Shown here piece after piece: positions 48,082 to 52,515 of a stretch of DNA of 64,000 nucleotides. Location: the sequence record OZ035785.1. The stretch is one strand, 5' to 3'. The DNA is from Tequatrovirus BCH953P2. Made by a program: the position numbers and the translations under genes. The notes beneath the pieces were generated by a model that saw only the letters and a program-made list of their open reading frames with translations, searched no databases and was not told where the DNA came from. Every line of letters starts with the position of its first letter. Position 1 is the first letter of the stretch.

Positions 48082-48942
48082 TTACACCGCCATCTTTCCT
48101 TTAATAGGAGGATGTGATACATAGTTGTTAAGAACGAAATCTTTAGGCCTAAGTTTAAGAACATATTTTAATTGTTCTTTAGTAGAAAGATATCGGAATT
48201 TATAAGGTAGACCACTTATTACCAGCTCACAAAGCTCTTTAGGTTCACGACGCAAAATTTCTTTACATTGTTCTACGTGATTCATATAGATATGAGTATT
48301 ACCGCCAGAAAATATCAAATCTCCCGGAATAAGATTACACATCTTAGCTACAATATGAACTAACGCAGCGTATGATGCAATATTGAATGGCAAGCCCAAG
48401 AACACGTCAACACTTCTTTGATACCACTGTAAATCCAAATGGCCATTACGAACATTAAATTGATAAAACATATGACAAGGCGGTAATGCCATCTGCTTGA
48501 GTTCAGCTGGATTCCATGCTGAAACAATTTGACGCCTATCATTTGGCAGTTTTTTAATACGATCAATAACTTCTATAATTTGGTCTACACCGCCAAAATC
48601 ACGCCATTGTTTTCCATAAATTGGACCAAGTTCACCACTATGGTATCCTAAATCTTTTGCTTGATTTTCGTAATTTTCATCCCAGACTGTTTTGCCTTGG
48701 ATTAACGAATCATGCTGAATTAATCGTAAATCATTGACATTTGTGCTTCCTGATAAAAACCATATTAACTCAGAAATGCAAGCTTTCCAGGCGAGCTTTT
48801 TAGTTGTTACTGCAGGAAAACCTTTGGTTAAATCCCAACGCAATTTAGTACCGAACAAAGCAATTGTTCCTGTGCCTGTTCGGTCATCAGTTTCATAGCC
48901 ATTTTCAAAAATGTCTTTAATTAAATCTTGGTATTGTTTCAT
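48082..48942 (-). CDS. td: Thymidylate synthase, uninterrupted
   Basis: 286-aa continuous ORF with the active-site region [10 protein letters not shown]; no group I intron. Confidence 0.96.
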
Positions 48943-48983
48943 TTAGTACCTTATATAAATTATAATACATTTTATGAAGCTAA

Positions 48984-49331
48984 TTAATATGGTTTAGCAT
49001 CAAATTTTCTCTCAATTTCAGGCGTGAAATATAATTCTTTACCGCGTTTGGAAAAACGACCAATAATATGATAATTATTCTCATCAAACGTGATATTACC
49101 AATATCCATAGCTTTCAACCAAATATCGATATTTCTATCCAGCTTTATGTCAAAATTCCAATACGGAGAACTATTACCGAAAATACTGCAAGCGGATTCA
49201 GTGAAACAACTGCTATAAATCTTGTCTTTAGGAACTACTAATTGATAGACGCCTTTAATAAACTGAGGACCCTGCCATTTTGGTTGTTTCGCGTCTTTTT
49301 CTAATAGAATAGGGTAATAATTAAAATTCAT
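48984..49331 (-). CDS. Hypothetical protein between frd and td
   Basis: 115-aa ORF with ATG start, between the frd stop (49351) and td start (48942); no recognisable motif. Confidence 0.6.
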   Translation of the reverse strand: MNFNYYPILLEKDAKQPKWQGPQFIKGVYQLVVPKDKIYSSCFTESACSIFGNSSPYWNFDIKLDRNIDIWLKAMDIGNITFDENNYHIIGRFSKRGKELYFTPEIERKFDAKPY

Positions 49332-49350
49332 ATTTCCGCCACGCGTTATT

Positions 49351-50177
<827 letters not shown>

Positions 50178-50185
50178 ATTATCTC

Positions 50186-50521
50186 CTAATATAAAGGATC
50201 GGGAACATATCCGCTGGCTTTAATCATTTTGATTAACGTTAACATTCCTTTATTAACTGCTCGTGAGATTTCATCAAAAACTTCATCACTAAAAAGTTCT
50301 AACACACCCTTCTGAACTTTTAATTTACACCCAACAATTTCGTCATCACCTATAGTAAATTCGTTTCCGCCAATTCCACCGAAAAACTTAATTACGCCAG
50401 TTAATTGTTTTCCACGAGAATATGGGTCATGTGATAAAGTAATATGAGTCACCCCAGGTACAGTTTTAAATTGGCAGCGGATGTTTACTTGGGCAATTCC
50501 AGTTACGTAAATGTCAGACAT
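50186..50521 (-). CDS. Hypothetical protein (frd.2 position)
   Basis: 111-aa ORF, ATG start. Confidence 0.7.
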   Translation of the reverse strand: MSDIYVTGIAQVNIRCQFKTVPGVTHITLSHDPYSRGKQLTGVIKFFGGIGGNEFTIGDDEIVGCKLKVQKGVLELFSDEVFDEISRAVNKGMLTLIKMIKASGYVPDPLY

Positions 50522-50531
50522 AATATTTTCC

Positions 50532-50774
50532 TCAAACAGACTTTTTCACAATTTTCCAATCAGCTTTAAACTGTTCAACGTCAGAATGGTAAATCCAGAA
50601 TCCTGCGCTTTCTCCATCCTCATAAAGAGGACATCCATCACATTCATCTTCCCATCCCATATCACGTAAAAGATGTTCAGCTTTTTCAACAAGTTCAGAA
50701 TCTTTACCGATGATATTAAAATACCATTTACCTCTAACTTCTGAATCTTTGATGCTCTGGCGTTGTAATCTCAT
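50532..50774 (-). CDS. Hypothetical protein (frd.3 position)
   Basis: 80-aa ORF, ATG start. Confidence 0.7.
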   Translation of the reverse strand: MRLQRQSIKDSEVRGKWYFNIIGKDSELVEKAEHLLRDMGWEDECDGCPLYEDGESAGFWIYHSDVEQFKADWKIVKKSV

Positions 50775-50828: not shown

Positions 50829-51194
50829 CTACTTTTTGAAAGTTTTTCGCAAAAGTTCAATGATTTCATCTACATTGTTTTCGTCTACAATGCAGTGAAT
50901 TTTTGTTACGCCAGAAACCAGGTCTTTGACTTCATCTTCTTCAGAAGTCGGTTCTTTATACTCACGAAAACAATGAAATTCATCTTCACAAATGTTAAAG
51001 TAAAAATGCTTTCCATTTGCGCATTCAATGTGTTTTATTGCTCTAAATCCATCAACAAAGAAAGCTTCTTTAACTTCAAACCACCCGCCATTTTCTTCAA
51101 TAATTTTAACTATTGATGAATTAGAACGTGGGCGATAATTAATAAATGTATCAATAAGTCTTGGAACAAGTTCATACTTTTTGCCAATATACAT
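50829..51194 (-). CDS. Hypothetical protein
   Basis: 121-aa ORF, ATG start. Confidence 0.65.
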   Translation of the reverse strand: MYIGKKYELVPRLIDTFINYRPRSNSSIVKIIEENGGWFEVKEAFFVDGFRAIKHIECANGKHFYFNICEDEFHCFREYKEPTSEEDEVKDLVSGVTKIHCIVDENNVDEIIELLRKTFKK

Positions 51195-51237: not shown

Positions 51238-51465
51238 TTATTGTTCAATCAGTCCCATGTAAAATTCTGCGTCTTCAGAATCCATGCCATCACAATATTC
51301 ATTAGCCATAAAGCGGGTGAGGTCTTCAAGAGGACCTTCAATAACGATTTGAATACTCCAATACTTAGAATCTTGCACGCTTGTGATACTAAGTTCAGGA
51401 TAACGATTACGAATAATCTCTTCAATATATTCAAAATCAACGATGTCAATATCAACTTTAGCCAT
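51238..51465 (-). CDS. Hypothetical small acidic protein
   Basis: 75-aa ORF; GAGGA SD and a GTTTAC...TACTAT promoter-like sequence upstream on the minus strand. Confidence 0.65.
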
Positions 51466-51609: not shown

Positions 51610-52515
51610 TTAAAGGTCATTCAAAAGGTCATCCAGGTCCGTGTCATCAGCACTAGATGAACTACCAGAGCTTGAGCTCATAAAATCATCTTCAGTTTTT
51701 GTATTGAAGTCATCAACATTGAATGCATCCAAATCATCAGCAACTTTATCAGCTTTCTTAGCAGCAGTTGCAGCGGCACCGCCCATCACAGCAGTTCCCA
51801 TAACTTGACTAAACTTAGTGCTCAGTTCTTCAAACGATTTGAATTTATCTTTAGAAGTCATTTCAGAAAGGTCAACCATTTGTTCGAACAGTTCTTTCTG
51901 GAAAGATTCATCATCAATGTTTGGAATCGCAGATTGATTCAGGAATTTAGATTCATCGTAGTTACTAAATCCAGAAACTTGTTTAACTTTCAGTACAAAG
52001 TTAGCACCTTCCCACGGACAAGTTACATCAACCGGAGTTTCACCCATTTCAACATCAACTGCAATCATTGCATTGATTTTATCCCAGATTTTCTTACCGA
52101 AACGGTATTTAAATACTTTACCTTCATTTTCTGGAGCAGCTGGGTCTTTTACTACAAGAATGTTAGCCCAGTAAGAAGTTTTACGTTTAACAAGACCGTA
52201 CTCTTTATTGTCAGTGTTATACAAATCATTTTTACTAATGTATTGACATACTGGGCAAGAATCGTAATCACCGTGGGTAGATGAACACGTTTCAATATAC
52301 CATTTGCCATTTTTCTTGAAACCATGATTTACAAGAATTGCGAATGGTGCTTGTTCATCATTTTTAGACGGAAGAAAACGAATTACTGCTTGACCGTTAC
52401 CCGCATTGTCGAGTTTCAGTTTCCACTCGCCTTTATCTTCAGAAGAAAAACCTTTATTGCCATTCAGTTTAGCCATTTGTGCAGCGAGTTCAGCAGTAGA
52501 TTTACGTTTAAACAT
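51610..52515 (-). CDS. 32: Single-stranded DNA-binding protein gp32
   Basis: 301 aa; N-terminus [23 protein letters not shown], zinc-binding C/H cluster and acidic C-terminal tail as in T4 gp32. Confidence 0.97.

Follow-up and report, generated by a model that had tools for sequence, protein, structure and literature searches.

td.1, an already catalogued small gene between frd and td of Tequatrovirus BCH953P2, and its probable loss from T4 by deletion

Organization of the frd–td region

The window analyzed here is a 64,000-nt stretch of Tequatrovirus BCH953P2 (sequence record OZ035785.1), in which the genes from gene 32 through frd and td to nrdA are all encoded on the minus strand (Table 1). 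Its sequence is identical to none of the records with which it was compared, the best of them matching at about 96%. Between frd and td lies a gap of 408 bp (48943..49350), and most of this gap is taken up by an ORF of 115 amino acids that begins with ATG, as a sequence-only reading of the same DNA had reported. That reading had also stated that in T4 the stop codon of frd overlaps the start codon of td at ATGA, and the coordinates of the T4 genome show the statement to be correct (NC_000866; frd at 145109-145690 and td starting at 145112, a 4-nt overlap with no gene between them). The flanking genes are themselves familiar: Frd of the window shares 98% amino-acid identity with Frd of T4, and td has the same length as the intronless td of T2H.

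Table 1. Genes and sequence features in and around the frd–td interval of the window.
Feature	Coordinates	Strand	Remarks
gene 32	51610..52515	minus	
frd.3	51238..51465	minus	
frd.2	50829..51194	minus	
frd.1 / DUF5417	50532..50774	minus	
DUF7247 ORF	50186..50521	minus	111 aa
81-aa ORF	49932..50177	minus	phrog_3183
frd	49351..49932	minus	dihydrofolate reductase, 193 aa; stop at 49351; upstream neighbour of td.1
Direct repeat TAAATGAAA, upstream copy	49349..49357	minus	includes the frd stop codon TGA
412-bp segment absent from T4-type genomes	48946..49357	minus	boundaries ambiguous by the 9-bp repeat
frd–td.1 spacer	49332..49350	minus	19 nt, AATAACGCGTGGCGGAAAT; read from sequence
td.1 CDS	48984..49331	minus	115 aa; ATG start, TAA stop; ORF list, identity to T2/T6/RB14, PHROG 1928
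Candidate MotA-dependent middle promoter for td	48957..48983	minus	TTAGCTTCA, then TATAAT (48964..48959) or TAATTT (48962..48957)
Probable 3'-end remnant of lost paralogue B	48939..48959	minus	TTTATATAAGGTACTAAATGA, read as F I stop G T K stop; local alignment to PEi26
Direct repeat TAAATGAAA, downstream copy	48937..48945	minus	includes the td start codon ATG
td	48082..48942	minus	thymidylate synthase, 286 aa; start at 48942; intronless, without the I-TevI intron
nrdA.2 / DUF5496, nrdA.1 / DUF4326, then nrdA		minus	downstream of td

The ORF is td.1, a conserved small gene

The predicted product of the ORF is 100% identical over 115 aa to td.1 of T2H (AY262132.2) and T6 (AY262134.2), where the gene carries the label “td.1, hypothetical protein”, and it is also 100% identical to RB32ORF229c of RB14, whose RefSeq entry is annotated “flanked by 9 bp repeat”. 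Protein, position between frd and td, and flanking 9-bp repeat are thus common to the ORF of the window, the td.1 genes of T2H and T6, and RB32ORF229c (RB14, RB32, and RB51); relative to the T2H and T6 copies, the window copy differs solely by synonymous substitutions and by a spacer before the ATG that is one nucleotide shorter. A tblastn search of 50,697 phage records found the protein in 580, including T2, T6, T2H, RB14, RB27, and AR1; identity was at least 90% in 362 of them, and at least 99% in 265 of these 362. td.1 is therefore already known, being both annotated and widespread, and the function class of its family, PHROG 1928, is “unknown function”. A literature search found no mention of td.1 or RB32ORF229c, and the accessions are cited solely as sequence sources.

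The ORF had been described from the sequence alone as having no recognisable motif, which holds for Pfam, where no match was obtained, and fails for PHROGs, where residues 4-111 align with profile positions 2-125 of 126 of phrog_1928 (E = 8.4e-36). Together with the identity to the T2 and T6 protein and the same-strand position between frd and td, this match along nearly the full length of the profile places the ORF within the td.1 family. Homologues from other genera likewise align over their full length, with a motif pattern of QKKW...HGIY...GN...GRFxKxGxxxxF, and six residues (W19, G27, G91, F93, K95, and G97) are invariant across genera. When 1.84 billion representative proteins were searched exhaustively with an HMM, 52 family clusters were recovered, nearly all of 95-148 aa and without annotation. 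Among the matches were four long proteins; the two that were checked (P0075 and P0078) are repetitive, and their matches were judged spurious. The family is a small one, so far found in phages and phage-like contigs only.

An ORF of this size in AT-rich intergenic DNA might also be an open frame arising by chance, and it is true that td.1 is without a known domain and that T4 lacks the region with no obvious harm. Such a frame would not be expected to behave as td.1 does. The nucleotide differences that separate the window copy from T2 (13), T6 (7), and RB14 (6) are all synonymous, and for this reason we consider the gene to be under purifying selection. Members as distant as 27% identity retain the invariant residues of the family, the clusters of the HMM search are of nearly uniform size, and the AlphaFold2 model described below is reasonably confident. 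The chance-frame reading is effectively refuted.

Synteny and paralogy across the Tevenvirinae

Other genera have, at the corresponding position, td.1 homologues of 27-63% identity. In nine further loci, representing at least eight genera of the Tevenvirinae, a homologue lies directly downstream of frd: Entb_45 and PEi26 (Kanagawavirus), Mineola (Jiaodavirus), STML-198 (Gelderlandvirus), Moon (Moonvirus), CHI14 (Winklervirus), EcS1 (Kagamiyamavirus), Cronus (Roskildevirus), and the Klebsiella phage Biddle_MM4. In most of these loci the td.1 homologue (hereafter A) is adjoined by a second ORF of 113-144 aa (hereafter B), usually situated between A and td. B is a paralogue of A, as judged by blastp E values down to 1e-13 within the small set compared and by membership in the same PHROG. 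PHROG 1928 accordingly pools two paralogous subfamilies, of which B carries an insertion of about 20 residues, PTIEQYKRNP, and the td.1-like A does not. Some genera possess in addition a 68-aa ORF (C; phrog_9550) just before td. In the Erwinia phage Cronus the order is the reverse of that in the other genera, with a 144-aa B-like copy (L007:2059-2493) preceding the A-like copy (2486-2797).

The closest relative of td.1 outside Tequatrovirus, at 63% identity, is encoded on a metagenomic contig (L015) in the order frd-A-B-C-td, with ATGA overlaps at frd/A, B/C, and C/td and a 17-nt overlap at A/B. The tandem A-B(-C) cassettes of this contig and of Kanagawavirus, Moonvirus, Gelderlandvirus, Winklervirus, and Kagamiyamavirus share with the window the gene family, the place, and the orientation, and are packed by tight stop/start overlaps. 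In contrast, the window keeps A alone, with B present as a probable remnant and C absent. Across genera, td.1 identity does not track that of either neighbor, which ranges from 44 to 54% for frd and from 73 to 81% for td.

The probable remnant of B was recognized directly upstream of td, where the window reads F I stop G T K stop and the end of B in PEi26 reads F I L G A E stop. Over the 21 nt preceding the td ATG, the window matches PEi26 at 13/21 positions, Moon at 10/21, and STML-198 at 9/21, all of them phages in which B abuts td, as compared with 4-8/21 for junctions without B next to td. The segment is short and overlaps the Shine-Dalgarno sequence of td (AAGG, 6 nt before the td ATG), and conservation of this ribosome-binding site could contribute to the similarity, so that the assignment is suggestive. 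Because a B-like remnant adjoins td, it appears that the td.1 arrangement descended from A-B-td with subsequent decay of B. Two other candidate remnants were discarded. A 5' “remnant” of B (ATGCTAAACC...) overlaps the C-terminal codons of td.1, and its conservation is explained by td.1 itself; local alignment upstream of the td.1 ATG gave no support for the 19-nt frd–td.1 spacer as the leftover of the frd 3' end of a donor phage.

Three alleles within Tequatrovirus

Compared across T4-like phages, as had been suggested from the sequence alone, the frd–td junction is without td.1 in T4 and contains a member of the td.1 family in T2, T6, RB14, and at least eight other genera. Within Tequatrovirus the interval exists in three states, holding td.1, the 68-aa ORF, or nothing. 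Counting duplicate RefSeq and GenBank records, and with the T4-type junction detected by a 36-mer search that variants may escape, td.1 alone is found in about 362 records, the 68-aa ORF alone in about 135 at 90% identity or more (EcNP1, fPS-2, and IME537 among them), and the direct ATGA overlap in 32. About half of these 32 are T4 and its laboratory derivatives, and the others are RB55, RB59, e11/2, HY03, SG1, G28, F1, FN, JEP6, FL12, FL18, and G2133. td.1 is the majority state in the genus and the T4 type is a minority.

The 68-aa ORF (L013:2529-2735 in the Escherichia phage EcNP1; L009:3148-3354, L004:3173-3379, and L015:4670-4879 elsewhere) looks horizontally mobile. The EcNP1 protein is 81% identical to the product of the ORF that directly precedes td in a Klebsiella phage, whereas the frd products of the same pair share only 47% identity, and td.1 identity to the homologue on contig L015 (63%) is likewise high relative to that of frd (49%). 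Horizontal exchange of small ORFs or cassettes thus does take place at the frd–td site. Homologues of the 68-aa ORF at 43% identity occur in Phapecoctavirus phages.

Candidate expression signals and possible function of td.1

td.1 has the same orientation as frd, td, and nrdA, and no terminator-like site was found between frd, td.1, and td, which together suggest that td.1 would be co-transcribed with the genes of nucleotide metabolism. A Shine-Dalgarno-like GGCGG is located 4 nt before its ATG. A two-codon mini-ORF, ATG AAA TAA (49353..49345, minus strand), overlaps the TGA that ends frd, and in contig L015, the closest outgroup, it is the ATG of td.1 itself that overlaps the frd TGA. The ATG of the mini-ORF is the same one that starts td in T4 and the 68-aa ORF in EcNP1. 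In RB14 (NC_012638, L019:897-1511), frd is annotated as 33 nt longer and overlaps td.1, and two additional A residues (TATAAAAATGAAAT) are present at its stop; these represent either a real frameshift or a sequencing error.

The spacer between td.1 and td is 41 nt long and contains TTAGCTTCA, which resembles the consensus of the MotA box. This spacer may hold a middle promoter for td, one that T4, which has no such spacer, could not possess; the candidate was not among the sites listed by a sigma-70 promoter scan.

The AlphaFold2 model of td.1, computed from a 31-sequence alignment (pLDDT 78.5, pTM 0.74), is beta-rich with one helix at residues 68-77, and it bears a weak but consistent resemblance to OB-fold nucleic-acid-binding domains such as those of SSB, RPA, PriB, and HIN; no structural match reached significance. 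A profile search against PDB sequences gave no significant match (best E>=0.24), BFVD matched td.1 to uncharacterised T4-like phage proteins alone, and Rfam yielded sub-threshold noise alone, on the opposite strand. PADLOC returned no match for td.1 and two isolated weak matches among 21 relatives (E>=0.011). td.1 could tentatively be regarded as a non-enzymatic, beta-rich, perhaps OB-like binding protein. As such it would act by binding a protein or nucleic acid partner in early or middle infection, and it might be made alongside the genes of dTMP and dNTP synthesis.

The absence of td.1 from T4 and RB69 implies that the gene is dispensable, and to this extent, as well as in the variability of the frd–td interval within Tequatrovirus, the sequence-only reading was right to call it accessory. 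Dispensability for growth combined with purifying selection would be typical of host-specific fitness or counter-defence genes, a comparison that we offer with low confidence. A more specific proposal, possible but doubtful, is that td.1 is a small OB-fold nucleic-acid-binding protein working with the replication or dNTP-synthesis machinery, for instance on ssDNA or RNA near gp32, Frd, and Td. It is decidedly unlikely, though conceivable, that td.1 and B are both phage-specific OB-like binders that tune the dNTP-synthesis/replication complex, or else neutralize a host defence directed at the nucleotide pool or the phage DNA. If this were true, the differential loss of A and B (T4 keeps neither, T2 and T6 keep A alone, and other genera keep both) would contribute to differences of host range and fitness among T-even phages. 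Being conserved across the Tevenvirinae under purifying selection, the PHROG 1928 family could reasonably be included in functional screens of phage accessory genes, though it does not stand out as a candidate.

Probable loss of td.1 from T4 and the alternative of insertion

How the two arrangements of the frd–td interval are related can be read from their borders. The segment of 412 bp that is absent from T4-type genomes was defined by comparing the window with the junctions of T4, HY03, and e11/2, and it is bounded by the two copies of TAAATGAAA; a repeat search extends this 9-bp repeat to 11/12 nt at a spacing of 412. When one TAAATGAAA copy is removed together with the intervening sequence, the product (...GTATATAAATGAAACAATACC... 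/ ...CAGTATATAAATGAAACAATACC...) is exactly the junction of T4, HY03, and e11/2. Up to the very edge of the indel the flanks hardly differ, indicating a simple insertion or deletion in otherwise shared sequence. The window contains 8 occurrences of the 9-mer for an expectation of 3.7, and 7 of them fall on the minus strand, which encodes the genes of the region. To find this sequence, typical of stop/start junctions, at both ends of the segment is unsurprising.

We propose that an old cassette of small ORFs stood between frd and td, and that td.1 would be its surviving first member, A. In the window B would have been reduced to the short remnant described above. In T4 and a minority of its relatives, the 412 bp would have been deleted between the two TAAATGAAA copies, which would have joined the stop of frd and the start of td into ATGA. 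We assign a probability of about 0.8 to this reading as a whole, in which the ORF is td.1, a genuine small accessory gene already catalogued in T-even phages, and in which T4 lost the segment by deletion. Between frd.1 and frd, where the window encodes the DUF7247 and 81-aa ORFs, T4 has neither and only about 70 bp in their place. Both ORFs are carried by other genera and by many Tequatrovirus phages, and their absence fits a T4 genome that is reduced throughout the frd.1–td stretch. The T4 reference would thus be a reduced outlier at this locus, and it would be a mistake to take a gene for an insertion because it is “extra” relative to T4. More generally, the stop/start motifs of the frd–td interval (ATGA and TAAATGAAA) would allow small genes to be lost whole, cleanly, and in register from T4-like phages.

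A caveat to this polarity is that the phages with a T4-type junction are not monophyletic in their flanks, from which it follows that the deletion either recurred at the repeats or was spread by recombination. In all six T4-type-junction phages that were examined, td is interrupted by the intron, and I-TevI is full or truncated. Spread of the deletion purely by hitch-hiking with the I-TevI intron was considered and rejected: td exon 1 of e11/2 is RB14-like, with 76/540 differences from T4, and T6 possesses both td.1 and the intron.

In the opposite polarity, frd and td would ancestrally have overlapped at ATGA, and mobile-element traffic would have brought td.1 in as an accessory cassette, with the 9-bp repeat as an insertion duplication. 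This seems to us unlikely, and yet several observations speak for it. A direct repeat does flank the segment, and the ATGAAA following the frd stop resembles a vestigial td start. The direct junction of T4 also occurs, as TATAAATGAAACAATAC, in RB69, whose genus, Mosigvirus, is related to Tequatrovirus. The overlap could therefore be ancestral to the Tequatrovirus/Mosigvirus clade and td.1 re-imported, which counts against a deletion in T4. Moreover, similarity between genera is higher for td.1 and the 68-aa ORF than for frd, which implies horizontal exchange at the site, and homing endonucleases are plentiful near this region in T-even phages (PMC2988022). Like td.1, the invasive elements of this neighborhood vary in presence between close T-even relatives (PMC2988022); unlike them, td.1 is without a nuclease domain and is deeply syntenic. 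Its presence varies within Tequatrovirus, but its place is the same in at least eight genera. Neither an endonuclease nor a transposase or recombinase domain is found in td.1, and a Pfam search gave no transposase match for it. The geometry of the direct and inverted repeats is also unlike a target-site duplication with terminal inverted repeats. A transposon-like element was sought in the sole terminal-like inverted pair, TATATAAAT / ATTTATATA, and dismissed, as the pair is external to one direct repeat, or overlaps it, and is set 7 nt inward from the other. Insertion is further opposed by the probable B remnant, which abuts td as B does in PEi26 and would derive the td.1 arrangement from A-B-td, and by the status of td.1 as the majority state in the genus.

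Of the mobile-element traffic invoked from the sequence alone, what survives is the horizontal exchange of small ORFs at the frd–td site, and what falls away is any homing-endonuclease or transposase feature in td.1 itself. The notion of accessory traffic is kept partly alive by the uncertainty of polarity. This uncertainty lends no support to the further suggestion of an insertion specific to this lineage, against which stand the ratio of td.1 to T4-type records (about 362 to 32), the homologues in the same place in at least eight genera, and the annotation of td.1, years ago, in the GenBank records of T2H and T6. Deletion from an older cassette remains our preferred account of the T4 junction.

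A few GenBank records give the ORF a different identity. It is labelled “putative homing endonuclease” in MZ501052 (AugustSocin), MZ501089 (KarlGJung), and OR271596 (ValerieMcCarty04), and “putative dihydrofolate reductase” or “reductase” in MW749001 (Kelasse), OK272484 (JLBYU22), and PP526941 (ECO78). It is very improbable that either label is correct, given that td.1 and about 21 members of its family have no Pfam match at E<=1, with no GIY-YIG, HNH, LAGLIDADG, or DHFR domain among them, and that 115 aa is too small in comparison with the known free-standing endonucleases of T4. The labels probably derive from the adjacent genes.
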